DNA from: Candidatus Heimdallarchaeota archaeon
GTDB lineage: Archaea > Asgardarchaeota > Heimdallarchaeia > JABLTI01
Assembly: GCA_019056785.1 (NCBI GenBank)
Contig: DXJV01000101.1
Span: 1 to 30,328, forward strand
Direction of reading: 5' to 3'
DNA length: 30,328 nucleotides
Shown: positions 3,146-23,115 of the stretch, one piece after another
Layout: each line of letters starts with the position of its first letter
Numbering within the stretch: the first letter of the stretch is position 1
Notes under the pieces: generated by a model
Databases searched by the model: none
Told to the model about the DNA's origin: nothing
What the model saw: the letters and a program-made list of their open reading frames with translations, nothing else
Translations under genes and position numbers: made by a program

Positions 3146-4309
3146 TTAAAAAGAAGGCAATTTTTTCACTTTTTTTGGCTCTTTTGATAGATTTGCTCCT
3201 GTTTCAACATCCAATTCCTCAACATAGTGAATTTCGCCGCTAATTCGCGCATCAGTTTCGATATAAATAACTTCGCCATAGACATTTTTTGCCCGGGCCT
3301 TTTCTTCTATTGTAATGTCCTTTCCAATGAGATCATCTACGGTAGCTTTTTCAGAAATAATGATTTTATCGGCAATTACAGGGCAAGTGGCAAGTCCTCT
3401 CCGGCCAATTTTGAAATAGTTTCCTTGAATTCTCGAGGCGCGAATTTCGTTTCCAATTGTAATCTCGTTTCCATATAAATTCCCATCGATTACGCAGGAA
3501 CCTCCAACTGCGAGCCGCCCTTCAGTAGTAATGTCGTCATCAATGATGAGAGTGCCACCAACAGAAAGATTTTTCCCAGTTGCTTTCGCTTCGATTTTTA
3601 TTGTTCCGCCAACGGTTAATGAGCCAAACTCGAATTCTTCTTCTGCTTTAAAAGAGCCTCCAACATTTGCATTTGCAATCTTTGCTGATTCCTCAAGTTT
3701 AATTGTGCCACCAACGTCAATTGTATCAATATCCACCTCTCCTTCTGCTTGAAATGTCCCACCAACTTTTACCTCTAAAAATTTCCCACTTTCTACTTTT
3801 GCTGTCCCTCCTACACGAAGATTTTCGATATCTGCCTGTCCTTCTAGTTTAACTGTTCCTCCAACTGAGATTGCGCCAATATTGCAATCGCCCTCGATTT
3901 TCATTGTTCCTCCGACTTGTACGGTTTCAGCTGCGACATTTCCTTCGACTTTCAAAGTACCTCCAACTTTAATTTCATCGCTTTGAAGATCGCCTTCTAC
4001 TTCTAAAACGCCTCCAACTGCAATTTCAGGGGATAAAAGAGCCCCCTCAACAGAAAGCCGTTTGTCGATTCGAATGTGTTTCTTCACAGAGAGATCGCCT
4101 TCAACTGTAAGGGAGCCACGTTTGCAGCGAATGCTTATAGCAGTAAGATTGCCAACCACAGAAAAACTTCCTTTTGAAGTTATCGTACCGGCGATGTATA
4201 TTTCTTCATCTTTTGCGACAAGAGTTGCACCATCGCCGACTTCCACATTGTTATCGATGTGGTCTAGCTCGATTCGTTTTCCAGGGGGAATAAATTCTTT
4301 ATCGTCCAT
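3146..4309 (-). CDS. Long bactofilin-like (polymer-forming cytoskeletal) beta-solenoid protein
   Basis: 387 aa, V/G/I/E-rich; 11 consecutive ~17-aa repeats of xVGG(T/S/V)xxxEG; no signal peptide or TM helix. Confidence 0.75.
   Translation of the reverse strand: MDDKEFIPPGKRIELDHIDNNVEVGDGATLVAKDEEIYIAGTITSKGSFSVVGNLTAISIRCKRGSLTVEGDLSVKKHIRIDKRLSVEGALLSPEIAVGGVLEVEGDLQSDEIKVGGTLKVEGNVAAETVQVGGTMKIEGDCNIGAISVGGTVKLEGQADIENLRVGGTAKVESGKFLEVKVGGTFQAEGEVDIDTIDVGGTIKLEESAKIANANVGGSFKAEEEFEFGSLTVGGTIKIEAKATGKNLSVGGTLIIDDDITTEGRLAVGGSCVIDGNLYGNEITIGNEIRASRIQGNYFKIGRRGLATCPVIADKIIISEKATVDDLIGKDITIEEKARAKNVYGEVIYIETDARISGEIHYVEELDVETGANLSKEPKKVKKLPSF
3495..4025 (-). repeat. Degenerate ~51-nt coding tandem repeat (VGG windings)
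   Basis: CC(T/A/G)CC(A/G/T)AC recurs at about 51-nt spacing on the + strand, matching the 11 VGG motifs. Confidence 0.8.
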
Positions 4310-4597: not shown

Positions 4598-5389
4598 TTA
4601 TTGTTTCTCAAGCCTTTGTTGTGCCAGTTGTAAATACTGTGGATCGATTTCAAAACCAACATAATGGCATCCAAGTTTCTTTGCAGCAAGAGCTGTGGAC
4701 CCACTCCCCATGAACGGGTCGAGAACGATAAACGGTTCTTTTTTTTGCAATCCATGAAGTTTAATGCACATCTCTGCCAATTTAACCGGGAAAGCAGCCG
4801 GGTGTGCTTTTTTTTCTTGAACAGTCTCGTAGGGTATGAACCACTGGTTTCCTCTCCCTCGCAAATCCTGTTTGGCATGTTTCCAACGGCCGATATTACT
4901 TTTATCTGCATACGGAACTCCTATGGCCAATTTGTCTAAAATAACATCTCCCTTTTTAGTGAAATGAAAAATGTATTCATGTGAGTTATTCAGATATCTT
5001 TCTGAATTGACTGGTTTATAATGTCCAATGTTTATCTTCTTTTCAGGAATAGCTATAGATTTAACCCAATGAATGGTATTTTGTAATTTAAAAAAACGAG
5101 CAAATTCCTGAGCAATTTTGAACGCTCGAAATTCATCTGAGGGCTTATCTCCAAGGTTAAGAAACAAAGAACCCTTGTCATTTAACACACGATAACAAGC
5201 TTGAGCAACATCGCCCATCCACTGTAAATAGTCTTTAAAAGGTTGTTTGTCATGGTAGACGCTGTAATCGATACCAATATTATAAGGTGGAGAAGTAACT
5301 ATTACTTCAATGGATTTTTCCGGCAATACTGCGTTCATACCTTTGATGCAATCCATTTGAAAGATCGTATCGAGCCAGTTATTTTTCAT
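4598..5389 (-). CDS. Site-specific DNA amino-methyltransferase (N6_N4_Mtase family, beta class, probably m4C)
   Basis: TSPPYN catalytic motif near the N-terminus; HPAAFP; VLDPFMGSGST SAM-binding motif and GFEID near the C-terminus. Confidence 0.93.
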   Translation of the reverse strand: MKNNWLDTIFQMDCIKGMNAVLPEKSIEVIVTSPPYNIGIDYSVYHDKQPFKDYLQWMGDVAQACYRVLNDKGSLFLNLGDKPSDEFRAFKIAQEFARFFKLQNTIHWVKSIAIPEKKINIGHYKPVNSERYLNNSHEYIFHFTKKGDVILDKLAIGVPYADKSNIGRWKHAKQDLRGRGNQWFIPYETVQEKKAHPAAFPVKLAEMCIKLHGLQKKEPFIVLDPFMGSGSTALAAKKLGCHYVGFEIDPQYLQLAQQRLEKQ

Positions 5390-16408: not shown

Positions 16409-18172
16409 CTACCAAAGTGGTAGGGCTCTTTTCTCATCAATTACCGGCAGGGTTTGTTCATCAAAAATAATTCTACGCCTGAATTTTATCTCTTCATTTT
16501 TCATCGGCTTTTTAAACGCGAGAATTTTGCCTGAGAGAAAAGTAATTGTTTTTGCTTTTTCGAGTTTTTCGAAAATTGAGGTGGGAAGGTCAAGTACCCA
16601 GAAAGACTTTAGGCGTTCATTCCATGCATATACCCATAGGCGCTTTCTTTTTTCAATAATTTCTGCAATTTCCCACGGTCCATGATATGGTTTAGCAATT
16701 TTGCAGTTGAAATCTTCCTTTATTTTCTCGAGATTTTTTTGATCTGGTTCTTGTAGAGTTCTGTCCTTAATGGTTGTTTTCAGTATTTCAGCCGCGTCAG
16801 CGATTAGCGGATTGTCAGGAGAGAGGAGGCGCAAATTTGCCAGATGAAGCAGCTCCTGAGCAGCGCTTTTCTTATGTTGAGCTGAAAGTTTTTCATCTTT
16901 TAGCATTTTACTGAGAATTTTCTTTGCCAGTCCAGGGTTGGGAATAGCAAGTGCTTCTTTGGCGAGGAGAAGTAACGTTTCAGCGCTCTGATCTTTGATG
17001 AGTCCAACTTTTCTGTTATAAATAACTAATAGGGCTGTAGCGACAGAACGATATTTTTCTAATTCACTTGAAGAGCTGATCTGGCTTTCTAAAAATTGCT
17101 CGAGATAGCGCATACTTTCTTCGATGGAGCCTAATTCTAGCAGAAGAAGTGCTTCTATGAAAAGTAATTGACTTGCGTTTCGTTGCAAGTTTTCCTCATA
17201 GGAGCGCAAGAAGACAATGGATTGTGCTGCAGCGCGAACATGCGCTAAAGCCCCTACAAGATTTAAATCTAAATGTTCTTGTTCTGCAAGTTCCAAATGA
17301 TAACTTGCCAGTTCTTTATGAATTAGTTCAATAACGATTGGAGGGATTGTTGTCTCTTTTAAAACAGTCCGGAGTTGTTGCATCAATTCCAGGCATGCAT
17401 TTTCTGTCAGAAAATCTGGATCGGTTCTTTTTCTTCGCATTATTTCTAACAAGGGGGTAATCTTCTTTATTTCATTACTTCTCGTTCCGTTTTCGATGAA
17501 AGCAAATATTTGTTGCTGCAATTTGGCATTACTTTGTTCCGAGGCAATGCTCACCTTGGAAAGAATCTCGATGGATGTGGTTATTACTTTTTCATAGGGG
17601 AGTGTTCGTTCTTTTTTCCTCAGGAATTTTTGAAGATAATAATAACTCATAGTAACATTGTCAATAATTTGTTGCCGTCTTTCTGGATCTGAAACGAAAG
17701 GAAGCATCTGGAGAAAGAACAAATGAGTGTATTGACACTTTATACTTTCTTCTCCTTTGGCAAGGTCCTTGACAATGTTATGAACACCTTCGTCATCTGT
17801 AATAATCATAACATCCTTCCCTTGTTCTTTCAAATGATAGGCAAGACGGACAATATCTATATCAGTTAACTTTTCATCCTGTACATCTTGAAAGGTAATT
17901 CTATGTTTATCTAAGGCGAGGGCTTTGATCTGTTCAAAGAACTCATCCCGGGGGCTTTCAAGGAAGGAAAAGAGAATGCGAATTTTATGTATGAATTTTG
18001 TGTGCAAAGCTTCTACGAAATCTTTGCTCAGGTCGTTTTTAGCTAAAACATATTCCATTTCAAGTGGTTTTTTTAACTGCAAGAGAAGTGTGTGGGCTGA
18101 GCTTTTTCTCGAGTGCATATAGATGTAGACTAACGAACAGGTGTCGAAAATACATGTTTTCCCTTTTACCAT
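16409..18172 (-). CDS. PIN-domain protein with central helical/TPR-like region and C-terminal beta-rich domain
   Basis: PIN pattern CIFDTCSL...LTDIDIVRLA...VMIITDDEGV; TPR-like EALLLLELGSIEESMRYLEQ; GGAGG SD; 18 bp after the ATPase stop. Confidence 0.75.
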   Translation of the reverse strand: MVKGKTCIFDTCSLVYIYMHSRKSSAHTLLLQLKKPLEMEYVLAKNDLSKDFVEALHTKFIHKIRILFSFLESPRDEFFEQIKALALDKHRITFQDVQDEKLTDIDIVRLAYHLKEQGKDVMIITDDEGVHNIVKDLAKGEESIKCQYTHLFFLQMLPFVSDPERRQQIIDNVTMSYYYLQKFLRKKERTLPYEKVITTSIEILSKVSIASEQSNAKLQQQIFAFIENGTRSNEIKKITPLLEIMRRKRTDPDFLTENACLELMQQLRTVLKETTIPPIVIELIHKELASYHLELAEQEHLDLNLVGALAHVRAAAQSIVFLRSYEENLQRNASQLLFIEALLLLELGSIEESMRYLEQFLESQISSSSELEKYRSVATALLVIYNRKVGLIKDQSAETLLLLAKEALAIPNPGLAKKILSKMLKDEKLSAQHKKSAAQELLHLANLRLLSPDNPLIADAAEILKTTIKDRTLQEPDQKNLEKIKEDFNCKIAKPYHGPWEIAEIIEKRKRLWVYAWNERLKSFWVLDLPTSIFEKLEKAKTITFLSGKILAFKKPMKNEEIKFRRRIIFDEQTLPVIDEKRALPLW

Positions 18173-18190
18173 TTCTTTTTTTGAACCTCC

Positions 18191-20044
18191 TTATTGGCTT
18201 GACAAGTTGACAATATTGTCCCATTCACTCTCAAGAAAATCTTGGTTGTAAGTGAAAATGATGCTTTGTTTTATTGCTTCACCTTCTATTGCTGTGAGAA
18301 CATCCCGGAAAAGCTTCCCATTGAAGGAATCGAGATGCTGACAAGGTTCATCGATAATCAAAAGATTGAATTGCTCGAGTGATTTTTGAAAAGCAATACG
18401 TATTGCGAGGAGAATAAGAAAGCGTTCGGAACCACTCAGTTCATAGGCTTTTAAAACACGACCGGCCTTTGCCGGCTTGGCTGTGGGAACAAATTTATCG
18501 TCCCAATCTATTCTCCAGTGTTCATTTTTATATTTCTCCCAGATTTCTTCTGCAACTGTTTTTACATTACTAGTCATTTCAAGCCGCAATTTCTTTTTTG
18601 CTTCAGTAATAGTTTCAAGAATTAAGTCGCAGATTTTCTCCTTGTGTTTGAGCTCTTCTTCTGTTTTTTTCATCCTATTTATTTGATCTTCAGAAACAGC
18701 TTTTGCACCTTCTAAAATTCCCTTCTGTTTGGTTAGCTCTCTCTCTTCTTTATTTAATTCCTCCAATTTTTTCTCCAAACCATTAATTGTTTGAGGATAA
18801 TTTTTCCCTTCAAACAATTTTATCATGCTCTCACAAGTTCGTAAATTTTCGAGTTTTTCACTGATTGCATTTTTCTGAGTTATGTAATATTGGATTCTTC
18901 TGTTTACTTGTTCGATAGAATGGTTGAGTTTTTTAAGCTCGTTTTTTTGCTTTTTTAAATTATCAATTAATTCTTCCAGCTTGCCTTGGAGTTTTTCTAA
19001 TTCTTCTTGCAGATTCTTGAGCACCTTTTCAGTCAACTTCGGGTCCATTTCACGCCCACATGTTGGACAAATACCTTTACCTGCTGTGGCAGATTTTTGC
19101 TCCAGGATAACTTCAACGAGATTCTTTTTGAGAGTTAATGTTGCTTTGTATTCCTTCTCTTGGGAGGTTAAATTGTTTAAAATCTCTTTCGCTTTTTGTT
19201 GTTTAGTTTCCAATGTTTCTTTGTCTTTTTCTGCAGTTTGCTGTCGTTCTATCAATTTTACTTCTAATTCTTTTGGCTCATCTTCCCCCAGGTCAATCAT
19301 AATTGTCTTTAACTCTTCCAGTATTCCATCTCTTTTTTCAACATAATCTTTGAGTTTCTTCAAATCCGTTATTTCATTTTCAATCTCATTCAACCTTTTC
19401 TCAATCTTGGCTGGCTTTAACCCTTTTATTTCTGGAGGAACACCAAGATTAACTTCTATCCCAGCCTTAGTTCTAGATATTTGTTTTGTGATAAATTTCG
19501 TTTGTTTATTTACCTCTCTTTTCAAGTCAAACAATTCATTTTCTATTCTGCTTGCTTTTTCCAAGCCGATGAGACGGTCAATCTCCTTGATGACAGCATC
19601 ATTTGGGTTTGCTAAAAATTCATACACATCTTCTTCTTTCATATAGATGATCCTTTGGAAGATCTCTTCCGAGAGCTCTAAGCGTTCTCTTAAAAATTGT
19701 TCGGCTTCAGGGCCAACATAAAGTGCTTCAGAAAGCTCATCCACGTCATAAATGAAAAGTTGTGTTTTTGGCTTCTTCCCTTTATCCAATTGCCGTCGAA
19801 GCAGATAATCGCCTTCTTTTTTCCCAAAATTAACAATAATATCAACAAAAGCCATTTCCTTATCAGTTCGCCGTGGGTCTGTTTTTTTTGGTAGTAACCC
19901 CGTTAGAGCAAAAGAGATGGCCTTTGCAATACTACTTTTTCCTGATGCATTTGCCCCGTAGACTAAATTTTTTCCGGGTAAAAATGCGAGGCTTATTTCT
20001 TTATGTCCCATCCAATTGTTCAAAGAAATTTGTTTTACAAGCAT
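18191..20044 (-). CDS. Short Rad50/SbcC-like SMC-family ABC ATPase with zinc hook
   Basis: 617 aa; Walker A GANASGKSS; coiled coils around a central CPTCGR hook; signature LSGSE; Walker B LLIIDEP; D-loop QHLD. Confidence 0.93.
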   Translation of the reverse strand: MLVKQISLNNWMGHKEISLAFLPGKNLVYGANASGKSSIAKAISFALTGLLPKKTDPRRTDKEMAFVDIIVNFGKKEGDYLLRRQLDKGKKPKTQLFIYDVDELSEALYVGPEAEQFLRERLELSEEIFQRIIYMKEEDVYEFLANPNDAVIKEIDRLIGLEKASRIENELFDLKREVNKQTKFITKQISRTKAGIEVNLGVPPEIKGLKPAKIEKRLNEIENEITDLKKLKDYVEKRDGILEELKTIMIDLGEDEPKELEVKLIERQQTAEKDKETLETKQQKAKEILNNLTSQEKEYKATLTLKKNLVEVILEQKSATAGKGICPTCGREMDPKLTEKVLKNLQEELEKLQGKLEELIDNLKKQKNELKKLNHSIEQVNRRIQYYITQKNAISEKLENLRTCESMIKLFEGKNYPQTINGLEKKLEELNKEERELTKQKGILEGAKAVSEDQINRMKKTEEELKHKEKICDLILETITEAKKKLRLEMTSNVKTVAEEIWEKYKNEHWRIDWDDKFVPTAKPAKAGRVLKAYELSGSERFLILLAIRIAFQKSLEQFNLLIIDEPCQHLDSFNGKLFRDVLTAIEGEAIKQSIIFTYNQDFLESEWDNIVNLSSQ

Positions 20045-20053
20045 TTTATTTTT

Positions 20054-20257
20054 TCACTCTCCCTCGGTTATTTGTAGATATTTCTTTATCTCAGCTATAA
20101 AATTGAATGATTTATCGTCGATCTTTTTTAATAATTTTTCAATTTCAGCAACTTCTTCCTCACTAATCTTCGAAAAATCTTTCTTGGCTCTCTTATTGGA
20201 CTTCTCACAAACTTCTTGAAATGTTCTTGCTAACACTGCTCCAATTTGTTTTTCCAT
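20054..20257 (-). CDS. 67-aa helical hypothetical protein, tightly linked to the Rad50-like gene
   Basis: GAGGT SD before ATG; charged amphipathic helices; stop 9 bp before the ATPase start, and its last codons contain the ATPase SD (GAGGGAGAGTGA). Confidence 0.75.
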   Translation of the reverse strand: MEKQIGAVLARTFQEVCEKSNKRAKKDFSKISEEEVAEIEKLLKKIDDKSFNFIAEIKKYLQITEGE

Positions 20258-20382: not shown

Positions 20383-23115
20383 TTATTTTTCCCTTTTCGT
20401 GCAAATCCATTTCCAATCGCATATATCGCAGCTCTTCTTTTTAGCCTTTTTAGGAAATCTTCTCGAGATAATATTCTCTATAGTTTCTTTTACTTCGAAT
20501 TCCATACTTTTAAGGGCTTCCTCACTAATGTCAACCTCTGAACGGGTTCCTTCATCGAGGTGGTGAACTACAGCTCTTTTTGGTTGGAACCCGAGAGAGC
20601 GCATTGCTGCAATTGCATATAAGCGTAACTGTTTCACATAATCAGTTGTCATTTCAGAAAGGTCGCGTTCTTTGAAGTCCACTATTTCAATGGCTTCTAA
20701 CTCTCCTTTTTCATTGAATTTTTTGATCAGATCGATTTGCCCGGAAATGAGCGCTTGTTCTAAGGCAAATTCAAACTGTTTTTCTGTTTCAAGTATGAGA
20801 TTAAATTCTCCAGAGAATCGCTCAATATAATTTTTTATTATCCTGATTGCACTCTGCTTAAATCGGTCAATGAATTCTTGGGTGCAATACCGCAGGAAGA
20901 AATTTTGTTCAACAATTTTCAAGATTTCTTCATCTGATGGGGGGTTCGTTAGATATTTGGAATGGATAATGTTCAAAATGTTATGAATGGACCGGCCGTA
21001 GCCTAATGCAATGGAAATTTCCGGATTGAATCCAAAAATAAAGCGCAATTTATAATCGTAGGGGCAATGGTCGTAATAGCGCAAATCGCTGTAGGATGTG
21101 GCAAAACGTTTCAATGGCGCCGCAAGTTTCAAATCTAATTTTTCTCGATGAGTGGGGTCTGGAATTGGTTGGGTTAAAGTTTTTGCCTGGGGAAACTCTC
21201 TCAGAAAGCGTGATGGTTCGTTTTGAAGTCCCGGATAATTCTTCTTATATTGATGTGTTGACAAGAAAAGAAATTTTTCGCTTCGTGTTATTGCGACATA
21301 AAATAACCGTCGCTCATCCTCAAGATTTCCTTCATACCGTTGTACATTAAATAAATTAGTAGGAATTAGCCATCTGTTCGAGTTTCTTGCTCTAATTGGG
21401 AATAACCCCTCGATGAGATGGGGAACAAAGACTACCGGAAATTGCAATCCTTTTGCACGATGAACTGTCATAATTTTTATTGCATTAATCTTTGTTGGGT
21501 CATCTGCCCCTCCCTCTTCGTAGTTCCATTTTGCATAGCCTACAATGTAGCCGAGAAAGTATTTGATGTCTTTTAATTTAATTTGCTTATAAATAGCTTC
21601 AAAATCTGTTATCGCCTGGCTAAACATGCCGAGATTATACAGTTGTGTTTCTGAGAATTCAAATTCTATTGCCCCCATAAAGCCGAGGATAAGGTGGAAA
21701 AAGCCTTGCAAACTGATAGTGTCATTTGGTTTGTAACTGGCTTTTAATTGTTCCACTTCACGAACGAATTTTGTTGCATCGCCTTTGTCTTGAAACGTCA
21801 GGCGATATTGTCTGTGCAAATCTTCCGCTGTGATAGTTTTATTATCAACTTTCCAATCACCTAAAAAAGCAAATGCCTTGACGGCAAGTATGACCTCATC
21901 TTGTTCGAAAAGTTTTCCACCACCCTTCACAACAAAAGGTATCCCCCGTTCTTTAAAAGCTTGCATGTAGCTATCTGCTGATCTTTTAACTGTTCGGAAG
22001 AAAATTGCTATGTCTCGATAGTCAAGAGCATACTCCTCTCCTTTATTATTAACAAATTTTGTTCCTCGTAACTGTTCTATACGATTGATAATGAAGTTGA
22101 GTTCTTCTTCAAAGGTGCGAAATTGGACGGCATAAAGGTCGCCCGGCTCAAACTTTATCTTAGCTTCTTTCCAACCCGAGATGCTTTTCGGCAGCCGATT
22201 AAAATTATGTTCGATGAATTGCCTGGCAGAGTCAACAAGAACTTTACTACTCCGGAAGTTGATTGTAATGTCTATCACTTCTACATCAGGATAGCGTTTA
22301 CTAAAAGTAATGAGGTTATCGACATATGACCCCCGCCATTGATAGATACACTGATCATCATCGCCAACAACACAAAGACTTTTCGAATGTTGTGCAAGCT
22401 GTTCAATAATCCGTTCTTGGAGGGGGTTTATATCTTGATATTCATCAACAACAATGTGCTTGTACCGTTTGAAAACCTCTTCAGCAAATTCCTTGTCGTT
22501 TATTAATAATTGATAAACTTCATACATCATCCCAGAAAAGTCGAGGAAACGCTCCTCATCCAGCAATTGGCAATAGTATTCAAAACACTCGCGGAAAGGT
22601 TTTGGAAGCTCCTCGAGTGGAATAAGCTCTTCGCGGACCACGTCAACATTAAAACAGAAATTCATAACGTCGGCATATTTTCGACGAATTATTTCCCCGA
22701 GTTTGATTTTATTGAAATTACGTCGAAAATGGGTGAAGAGGATTCGTTTGTGTTCATCAAGCACATCATAATTCTTATACTTTGGTTTAAACTCTTGTAA
22801 AAGCTGATAGCAAAATGAATGTATGGTTCCAATATACATCTCGCCTATTTCAGGGTTCTCGGGTCGGAGTTCTTGGAGATGTTTCCGAATCCTGAATTTC
22901 ATCTCTTCCGCGGCATTTTCAGTGAAAGTAAAAGCAACAATTTCTCTCGTAGGAACACCGGTGCATACGAGATTGGCAATTCGACGGGTGATAACATCGG
23001 TCTTCCCAGAACCGGCACAAGCAATGATCTGAAGATTCCCCTCCCAATGGTCAATAGCTCGTTGTTGGTTCTTAGTATATCTCAAAACGATAACCTCTCT
23101 TGCTAAAAAGTTCAT
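20383..23115 (-). CDS. UvrD/PcrA-like SF1A DNA helicase fused to a C-terminal RecB/Cas4-like PD-(D/E)xK nuclease with four Cys (Fe-S)
   Basis: ACAGSGKT, TFTENAA, GTIHSF, VDEYQD, VGDDDQCIYQWRG, NFRS, TVHRAKGLQF, EDERRLFYVAITR; then SYS...CP, GRSIH, E...GQIDL...VDFK, QLRLYA, CxxCxxxxxC. True start may be TTG 23085 (after GAGGT). Confidence 0.93.
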   Translation of the reverse strand: MNFLAREVIVLRYTKNQQRAIDHWEGNLQIIACAGSGKTDVITRRIANLVCTGVPTREIVAFTFTENAAEEMKFRIRKHLQELRPENPEIGEMYIGTIHSFCYQLLQEFKPKYKNYDVLDEHKRILFTHFRRNFNKIKLGEIIRRKYADVMNFCFNVDVVREELIPLEELPKPFRECFEYYCQLLDEERFLDFSGMMYEVYQLLINDKEFAEEVFKRYKHIVVDEYQDINPLQERIIEQLAQHSKSLCVVGDDDQCIYQWRGSYVDNLITFSKRYPDVEVIDITINFRSSKVLVDSARQFIEHNFNRLPKSISGWKEAKIKFEPGDLYAVQFRTFEEELNFIINRIEQLRGTKFVNNKGEEYALDYRDIAIFFRTVKRSADSYMQAFKERGIPFVVKGGGKLFEQDEVILAVKAFAFLGDWKVDNKTITAEDLHRQYRLTFQDKGDATKFVREVEQLKASYKPNDTISLQGFFHLILGFMGAIEFEFSETQLYNLGMFSQAITDFEAIYKQIKLKDIKYFLGYIVGYAKWNYEEGGADDPTKINAIKIMTVHRAKGLQFPVVFVPHLIEGLFPIRARNSNRWLIPTNLFNVQRYEGNLEDERRLFYVAITRSEKFLFLSTHQYKKNYPGLQNEPSRFLREFPQAKTLTQPIPDPTHREKLDLKLAAPLKRFATSYSDLRYYDHCPYDYKLRFIFGFNPEISIALGYGRSIHNILNIIHSKYLTNPPSDEEILKIVEQNFFLRYCTQEFIDRFKQSAIRIIKNYIERFSGEFNLILETEKQFEFALEQALISGQIDLIKKFNEKGELEAIEIVDFKERDLSEMTTDYVKQLRLYAIAAMRSLGFQPKRAVVHHLDEGTRSEVDISEEALKSMEFEVKETIENIISRRFPKKAKKKSCDICDWKWICTKREK

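Follow-up and report, generated by a model that had tools for sequence, protein, structure and literature searches.

A contig from a Candidatus Heimdallarchaeota archaeon (DXJV01000101.1 of assembly GCA_019056785.1), analysed here over 30,328 nucleotides (positions 1 to 30,328 of the forward strand, hereafter the window), encodes on its minus strand three adjacent genes for a 67-amino acid (aa) helical protein, a 617-aa Rad50-like SMC/ABC ATPase with a zinc hook and a 587-aa protein with PIN, TPR-like and OB domains. We read this trio as an accessory, Asgard-restricted sensor-effector module that would work like Lamassu or RloC in a defence or conflict role, and give this reading a probability of about one half. 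The three genes keep their order across deeply diverged Asgard clades, the ATPases branch apart from canonical Rad50 and the distribution is patchy. The parts of the module are as follows.

20054..20257, minus strand: 67-aa all-helical small subunit (P0001), directly upstream of the ATPase gene
18191..20044, minus strand: 617-aa short Rad50-like SMC/ABC ATPase (P0002; Pfam AAA_23, SMC_N)
19931..19957, minus strand: Walker A of P0002, G30-S38, GANASGKSS; G30, N32, G35, K36 and S38 are invariant in alignment A2
19634..19636, minus strand: Q-loop position of P0002, Glu137 in place of the Gln of Rad50 (head alignment against canonical Asgard Rad50)
19058..19069, minus strand: CPTC zinc-hook motif of P0002, C326-C329, at the coiled-coil apex; C326, P327, T328 and C329 are invariant in 15 homologues
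18347..18364, minus strand: Walker B of P0002, LLIIDE with D565-E566, invariant in A2 (also head alignment)
18248..18250, minus strand: H-loop position of P0002, Tyr599 in place of the His of Rad50 (head alignment)
16409..18172, minus strand: 587-aa PIN-TPR-OB protein (P0003), its PIN, TPR-like and OB parts taken from AlphaFold2 models
17708..18172, minus strand: PIN nuclease domain, P0003 residues 1-155 (VIA-align, Foldseek, conserved acidic residues)
16778..17686, minus strand: TPR-like helical solenoid, P0003 residues 163-465 (AlphaFold2 model, VIA-align)
16427..16681, minus strand: C-terminal OB fold, P0003 residues ~498-582 (separately folded domain model)

The gene arrangement described in an earlier note on this DNA is recovered exactly: three co-directional open reading frames (ORFs) of 67, 617 and 587 aa are separated by 9 base pairs (bp) (67-aa/617-aa) and 18 bp (617-aa/587-aa), and a purine-rich Shine-Dalgarno-like site precedes each ATG (GAGGT, GAGGGAG and GGAGG). 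The same note had called the second product a zinc-hook SMC ATPase and the third a PIN/TPR-like protein. Both calls stand, the first on Pfam AAA_23/SMC_N and the invariant CPTC motif and the second on fold, with a C-terminal OB fold to be added. Its remark that no mre11/sbcD, nurA or herA lies in the window is true of the scanned ORFs of at least 100 aa, none of which contains an Mre11/SbcD (Metallophos), NurA or HerA domain. Co-occurrence of the three genes, which the note had proposed as a check, is found in related as well as distant Asgard genomes.

Our survey covered 400 Asgard species genomes (G numbers, G000 being the window's own assembly; individual loci carry L numbers). The order small protein-ATPase-PIN protein occurs in about 14 of them and in four deeply diverged clades, with ATPase identity down to ~25%. 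Clade A comprises G000, G004, G010, G011 and G053 together with metagenome loci L037, L040, L041 and L042. Clade B (G118-G121) stands at 28% identity for the ATPase and 23% for the PIN protein, and its small gene overlaps the start of the ATPase gene. Clade C is represented by G016 and L070, and clade D by G036. Because the order of all three genes is kept in so many other genomes, their linkage goes far beyond chance. The homologues that carry a name belong to Heimdallarchaeota, Hodarchaeales and other Asgard metagenome-assembled genomes, in agreement with an Asgard source, and no description of this small/Rad50-like/PIN-TPR module was found in the literature searched.

Besides AAA_23 and SMC_N, the ATPase has a sub-threshold match to Rad50_zn_hook at residues 323-355. 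The Walker A motif GxNxxGKxS, the Walker B motif LLIIDE, the SGSE signature and the CPTC motif at positions 326-329 are invariant in all 15 homologues of alignment A2. In a search of the PDB with the A2 family profile, the closest solved relatives are the archaeal Rad50 heads of M. jannaschii and P. furiosus (E 4e-21), and no LmuB or DdmC chain is matched at E<=0.01. The hook region, which contains the CxxC of a zinc hook, aligns with the P. furiosus Rad50 zinc-hook structures 1l8d and 6zff. The best NCBIfam Rad50 model gives P0002 83 bits, far under the cut-offs of 700-1087; the canonical 959-aa Rad50 of the congener G010, with a coiled coil twice as long, is also under its cut-off at 214 bits, 2.5 times the score of P0002. 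The model for archaea-specific SMC-related proteins (ASRP, NF045487) gives 76 bits, below its cut-off of 300. Two catalytic positions differ from Rad50. The Q-loop carries Glu in clades A-D and in a 629-aa protein of G148, whereas the canonical Rad50 rows keep Gln, and the H-loop position, which is His in every canonical Rad50 row of the head alignment, is occupied by Tyr or Phe throughout the four trio clades. Replacement of both the Q-loop Gln and the H-loop His suggests an altered ATPase cycle, in which P0002 may serve as an ATP-binding switch with slow hydrolysis and not as a motor.

Phylogenetic analysis agrees with a separate identity of these ATPases. In a head-domain tree (IQ-TREE, LG+C20; 29 rows and 367 columns, bacterial LmuB, SbcC and RloC not being among the rows), all 14 trio ATPases fall into one 97/99 clade apart from canonical Rad50. 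This clade also takes in an LmuC-linked LmuB of G325, which sits on a very long branch (5.1), and the 629-aa G148 protein. Short and long canonical Rad50, a DPANN Rad50 and a Sir2-type LmuB of G035 are all placed outside it. The G148 protein is a short Rad50-like ATPase whose Q-loop has Glu and whose H-loop has Phe; two genes of unknown kind, for 274 and 245 aa, precede its own (L058, 7242-10686). Another short Rad50-like ATPase, of 602 aa, was seen in G286, where its gene follows one for a 281-aa Metallophos (mini SbcD-like) protein (L059, 7194-9840).

In carrier relatives the trio exists alongside a housekeeping Rad50. A separate mre11-rad50 locus, which the earlier note had suggested looking for, is present in G010, G004 and G011, all three carrier relatives in family f1, as a HerA-Mre11-Rad50 operon on other contigs. 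We therefore consider it unlikely that P0002 is the only Rad50 of its genome. The canonical Mre11, Rad50 and HerA operon was not found in G000 itself. Since this assembly is 82.5% complete and all ten congeners of the window's genome have Mre11-like matches, the gap probably reflects missing assembly sequence. Elsewhere in G000 (contigs C60, C47 and C66; loci L029, L025 and L026) we noted a NurA standing alone, with an Arf-like GTPase and PolB on its two sides, as well as a canonical SMC-ScpA pair and an SMC-like protein of 1007 aa.

P0003 matches no Pfam, NCBIfam or PADLOC model (PADLOC at E<=0.01), and phmmer against PDB sequences was also empty, so that its assignment comes from structure. 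The AlphaFold2 model, with a predicted local distance difference test (pLDDT) score of 84.5, consists of a PIN domain (1-155), a TPR-like solenoid (163-465) and a β-domain. VIA-align relates the PIN domain to the HARP RNase P structure 7f3e (Z 9.9, 138 residues aligned, root-mean-square deviation 3.4) and to 1y82 (Z 9.8). Further neighbours are VapC15/21, Nob1 and the PIN domain of Dis3, and the HARP, VapC and Nob1 comparisons reach Z 9-9.9 over 120-138 residues. Foldseek gives probability 1.0 to 7og5 and 5h4h, with weak E-values for the whole model. Acidic residues D10, D51, D104/D106 and D126/D127 of the PIN domain are conserved across the wider P0003 family, and a clade-B homologue has sub-threshold Pfam matches to PIN_6 and TPR_19 (E 6e-5 for the latter). 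Against TPR proteins the solenoid reaches VIA Z scores of 8-11, no more than a moderate level where helical repeats are concerned. When folded alone, the β-domain is an OB fold (domain model pLDDT 88): nearly all of the best 50 VIA rows are OB folds, namely RPA, HIN, Teb1, SSB, CST and AsnRS, at Z 5-6.8, and Foldseek returns the same fold class with weak E-values. As judged from these models, the PIN domain is plausible as a catalyst. Its substrate would most likely be RNA (tRNA, rRNA or mRNA), because all the PIN structural neighbours listed are RNases.

The 67-aa protein is 45-57% identical within clade A, and a recognisable counterpart of ~72-89 aa lies upstream of the ATPase gene in clades B, C and D. 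Given this conservation, P0001 is a real gene. It has no match among Pfam, NCBIfam or PADLOC models. The idea that it is a free version of the Rad50-binding helix of Mre11 is not supported, as hhalign of the small-protein family against the G010 Mre11 gives a probability of 0.1%. Structure prediction of P0002 with P0001 and residues 275-587 of P0003 gives weak support for a complex, with a score of 0.49, the best control scoring 0.00. At least 92% of contacts are shared between runs, and the partner pLDDT is at least 82. For scale, 58 of 80 solved complexes and 2 of 110 mismatched pairs attain the pass mark of this procedure, and passes at scores of 0.60 or below comprise only 7 of the 80 solved complexes together with both passing mismatches. 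By analogy with the A1B2C1 assembly of Lamassu, a real trio assembly probably needs the ATPase dimer.

We infer that the three proteins form a complex that responds to DNA. Dimers of P0002, joined by the CPTC hook and by the ATP-engaged heads, would bind DNA ends or replication intermediates from an invading element. P0002 and the 67-aa subunit would jointly keep hold of the PIN-TPR-OB protein by its C-terminal half, until a rearrangement driven by DNA and ATP released or switched on the PIN nuclease. The latter could then cut nucleic acid captured by the OB fold, most likely RNA, leading to growth arrest or to loss of the invader. Two known systems offer precedents. Lamassu detects DNA ends and sets its effector free (PMC12663957; 10.1101/2025.03.14.643221), and RloC is a Rad50-like zinc-hook ATPase coupled to a tRNase (PMC3458546) that is regulated by DNA and by the zinc hook (PMC3458546, PMC3874168). 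Compared by description, RloC has an RNase governed by an ABC ATPase of Rad50 type that bears a coiled coil and a CxxC zinc hook, as is proposed for the trio. However, RloC is bacterial and unites ATPase and nuclease, the latter of the PrrC anticodon type, in one polypeptide, whereas the trio has its nuclease apart, as the PIN-TPR-OB protein, and adds a 67-aa subunit. With Lamassu (LmuA-LmuC-LmuB; DdmABC; ABC-3C), the trio shares a short ~600-aa SMC-like ATPase derived from Rad50/SbcC (its CxxC being optional in Lamassu), a small partner gene directly 5' of the ATPase gene, a third protein that joins an N-terminal enzymatic effector to a non-catalytic C-terminal part, and a patchy distribution, often near other defence genes (PMC12663957).

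A further gene lies close to the trio in the window:

20383..23115, minus strand: UvrD/PcrA-type superfamily 1 helicase with a PD-(D/E)XK (Cas4/RecB-like) nuclease, 910 aa, assigned by Pfam; 125 bp upstream of the trio

Its product matches Pfam UvrD-helicase, UvrD_C, PDDEXK_1 and Cas_Cas4, and in the scheme above it would unwind or degrade DNA from the ends. The gene adjoins the trio in six clade-A loci (G000, G004, G011, G053, L037 and L041), and five of the seven Asgard genomes with orthologues at E<=1e-80 (7/400) are clade-A trio carriers. In G010 only fragments of it remain, elsewhere in the genome. As it is missing beside the trio in G010, L042 and clades B-D, the UvrD-PD-(D/E)XK protein is a common companion that the trio can do without, perhaps as a fourth component or as a partner system. 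An ABC-type ATPase gene linked to a UvrD-family helicase is reminiscent of Gabija (GajA with the UvrD helicase GajB) and of AddAB/AdnAB, and the 910-aa protein indeed matches PADLOC GajB (E 3e-69) and NCBIfam PcrA/AddA. Unlike Gabija, the locus has no OLD/TOPRIM GajA, and the helicase carries a PD-(D/E)XK nuclease of its own and is dispensable for the trio.

The distribution of the module is that of an accessory element. Orthologues of P0002 at E<=1e-40 occur in 9 of the 400 Asgard genomes, including 3 of 11 in the window's genus (g1) and 1 of 25 in g7. Clade-A loci alone have at least four different flanking contexts. Some are ordinary, the window and L039 sharing flavodoxin and beta-galactosidase flanks. 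Others contain defence-type genes: GmrSD and a PLD-helicase at L040; HNH, Mrr, a 1763-aa DEAD helicase, DUF2779, PDDEXK_4 and NurA-HerA-AAA_23 at L037 and L041; and a PLD-SNF2 helicase in G010. A gene of 250-299 aa with a weak PADLOC match to a PD-(D/E)XK model (RTasPDDEXK, E 3e-6) lies directly 3' of the trio in G010 (L017, 7071-7823) and in L037/L041 (10776-11675), and it is not in the window.

Several observations weigh against a defence module akin to Lamassu. The neighbours in the window itself (beta-galactosidase, flavodoxin and an FG-GAP protein) are non-defence genes. No relative of the module was detected on IMG/VR viral contigs (alignments A1 and A2) or on PLSDB plasmids (P0002, tblastn). 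By the LmuB model, every genome sampled in genera g10 (3/3) and g6 (2/2) is positive, a pattern less expected of a sporadic defence gene; in each of these genera one locus was inspected. The LmuB model itself is unspecific, as PDLC03859 also gives 84 bits to the canonical 959-aa G010 Rad50 and 95-130 bits to canonical ~700-aa Asgard Rad50. Neither P0003 nor P0001 matches LmuA, LmuC or any other PADLOC model, and the same is true of a stand-alone g4 homologue (L020) and of the L037 small protein. The OB fold and the linkage to a helicase-nuclease suit DNA repair equally well. Moreover, genus g4 and the P0094 loci have distant PIN-TPR-OB homologues (~600-630 aa) that occur singly and in ordinary surroundings, and the ESM Atlas holds look-alikes of P0003 in 630-aa Thermoplasmatota clusters (score 0.93). 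A clade-B-like PIN-TPR protein, P0064, likewise has no adjacent SMC ATPase (L068, 9001-19746; GCA_037305845.1, CP147778.1); it adjoins a DISARM-like cluster (PLD, MZB/DUF1998, helicase, DNA methylase and SNF2) and a HEPN-nucleotidyltransferase pair, neighbours of defence type that count in favour of the main reading. Given these stand-alone homologues, the Thermoplasmatota look-alikes and the ATPase-less P0064, the nuclease family appears to predate the ATPase partnership and to be able to work without it. Of the three results that the earlier note had named as refuting its view, none was obtained, and that view is supported in part. Its proposal that DNA sensing would control a PIN nuclease for defence is complicated by the SMC-less homologues and by the frequent UvrD-PD-(D/E)XK gene outside the three-gene unit that it had considered.

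The main rival, which we consider unlikely, is a specialised DNA-end processing or repair module. Here, the Rad50-like protein would act as a tether and bring in, instead of Mre11, a structure-specific nuclease of PIN type, the OB fold would bind single-stranded DNA and the UvrD-PD-(D/E)XK protein would resect ends, beside or as a back-up to Mre11-Rad50/HerA-NurA. The kinship of P0002 with archaeal Rad50, extending to the zinc-hook region, fits such a role, as do the small gene in the usual place of mre11, immediately 5' of the ATPase gene, and an OB fold resembling the single-stranded DNA binders RPA, SSB and CST. The same can be said of the AddA-like helicase-nuclease linked to most clade-A loci, of NurA-HerA-AAA_23 near the trio in L041, of the presence of the module in every sampled genome of g10 and g6, and of the window's assembly, which shows no canonical Mre11, Rad50 or HerA. 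However, that gap probably is missing sequence, and carrier relatives retain the full canonical operon. The trio also differs from archaeal Mre11-Rad50 (with HerA-NurA) in having no Mre11 phosphoesterase, the upstream gene coding for 67 aa only, and in an ATPase with half the coiled coil, a score far under the NCBIfam Rad50 cut-off and a clade of its own. The altered Q and H loops speak against a normal Rad50 ATPase cycle. RNases make up the structural neighbours of the PIN domain, the matches listed containing no FEN/XPG-type nuclease, and both the patchy occurrence within g1 and g7 and the restriction-type neighbours at several loci argue against repair.

Slightly more doubtful is a plain Lamassu subtype, in which P0002 would be LmuB, P0001 a minimal LmuC and P0003 an LmuA with a new PIN effector, the gene order being rearranged. 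PDLC03859, an LmuB model, is the best PADLOC match of P0002 (E 7e-39, 133 bits) and covers it end to end. The described LmuB has a ~600-aa short form, a single CxxC and an hhhhDE Walker B (PMC12663957), all of which P0002 shares. The small gene precedes the ATPase gene as LmuC precedes LmuB, and the LmuC-linked LmuB of G325 falls inside the trio clade. Yet the branch of the latter is very long, the Sir2-type Asgard LmuB lies outside the clade, and the family profile matches no solved LmuB chain. The LmuB match as proof of membership was rejected, since canonical Asgard Rad50 scores alike. PDLC03859 matches in 153 of the 400 genomes, and all five ~700-aa matches that we inspected lie in NurA-HerA-Mre11-Rad50-like arrays (L060, L061, L065, L066 and L067, from G206, G303, G190, G386 and G121, respectively). 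The other components fit less well. The LmuC of G325, by contrast with P0001, is matched by four LmuC models (best E 5e-12), and hhalign of the small-protein alignment A5 against it gives a probability of 0.1%, so that P0001 as a minimal LmuC is not supported. The order is small-ATPase-effector in all four clades and not LmuA-(LmuC)-LmuB, with the effector downstream of the ATPase gene. Listed LmuA effectors are Cap4, Mrr, protease, Sir2, FMO, HNH, SMEK and lipase, with no PIN, and the C-terminal domain of LmuA is a helical bundle or helices with a sheet (PMC12663957), whereas P0003 has a PIN domain followed by TPR and OB parts. No Lamassu chain is among the listed fold-search matches of P0003, an absence that does not show a different fold. 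The earlier note was therefore right that gene order and effector depart from the canonical Lamassu layout. Because the LmuA-profile, LmuC and gene-order comparisons failed and the LmuB match is non-specific, we do not file the trio as a Lamassu member, although it would work like one.

Genuine Lamassu loci do appear to exist in Asgard, judging from their gene content. In G325 a canonical-order Lamassu-like operon encodes a 256-aa protein, the recognised LmuC and a 675-aa ATPase (L062, 6027-9311), and in G035 another encodes a SIR2 protein (LmuA), a 208-aa protein and a 746-aa ATPase (L064, 4477-8850). The Asgard host is a further difference between the trio and the described systems, as the Lamassu survey places archaeal systems in Euryarchaeota and Thaumarchaeota only and does not list Asgard hosts (PMC12663957). 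The Q-loop Glu and the H-loop Tyr of the trio ATPase likewise set it apart from Lamassu.

The last alternative, a housekeeping or stress RNA-processing enzyme unrelated to invaders, in which the PIN-TPR-OB protein gained an ATPase regulator in a few Asgard lineages, would accord with the conserved non-defence contexts of the stand-alone homologues, with the Thermoplasmatota look-alikes and with Nob1, HARP and Dis3 as PIN relatives, but is very unlikely in view of the tight, ancient linkage to a DNA-type Rad50-like ATPase across four clades, the rarity of the module and the defence-type neighbours at several loci.

Within the sensor-effector reading, the trio could be no Lamassu offshoot but an independent, Asgard-specific reuse of archaeal Rad50, with a hydrolysis-impaired zinc-hook DNA sensor and a 67-aa adaptor gating a pre-existing, autonomous PIN-TPR-OB ribonuclease. 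We advance this origin tentatively, as possible rather than probable. If true, the archaeal lineage closest to eukaryotes would possess an immune or conflict system not described before. To our knowledge, Rad50/SMC-derived immune sensors (Lamassu, Wadjet and RloC) are known almost solely from bacteria. Asgard archaea are the closest prokaryotic relatives of eukaryotes, and their defence is poorly charted. A sensor-effector module of the kind proposed here would provide a new effector class for SMC-based immunity (PIN-TPR-OB, probably an RNase) and show a second way in which a repair ATPase of Rad50 type has turned into a sensor. It would also offer a natural ABC ATPase in which the Q-loop and the H-loop are both replaced, a useful case for understanding signalling by ATP binding and not hydrolysis. 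For annotation, the matches of PDLC03859 to ordinary short Asgard Rad50 are a likely source of false Lamassu calls, and automated calls in Asgard genomes need care.

Other genes of this genome deserve a brief mention. An orphan N6/N4 DNA methyltransferase is encoded at 4598-5389 of the window on the minus strand (Pfam N6_N4_Mtase, E 3e-50), ~11 kb from the trio, and no restriction gene was recognised among the scanned flanking ORFs. At 3146-4309 on the same strand, this Asgard genome encodes a 387-aa protein with a bactofilin domain (E 8e-14). The genome also codes for Arf-family GTPases.

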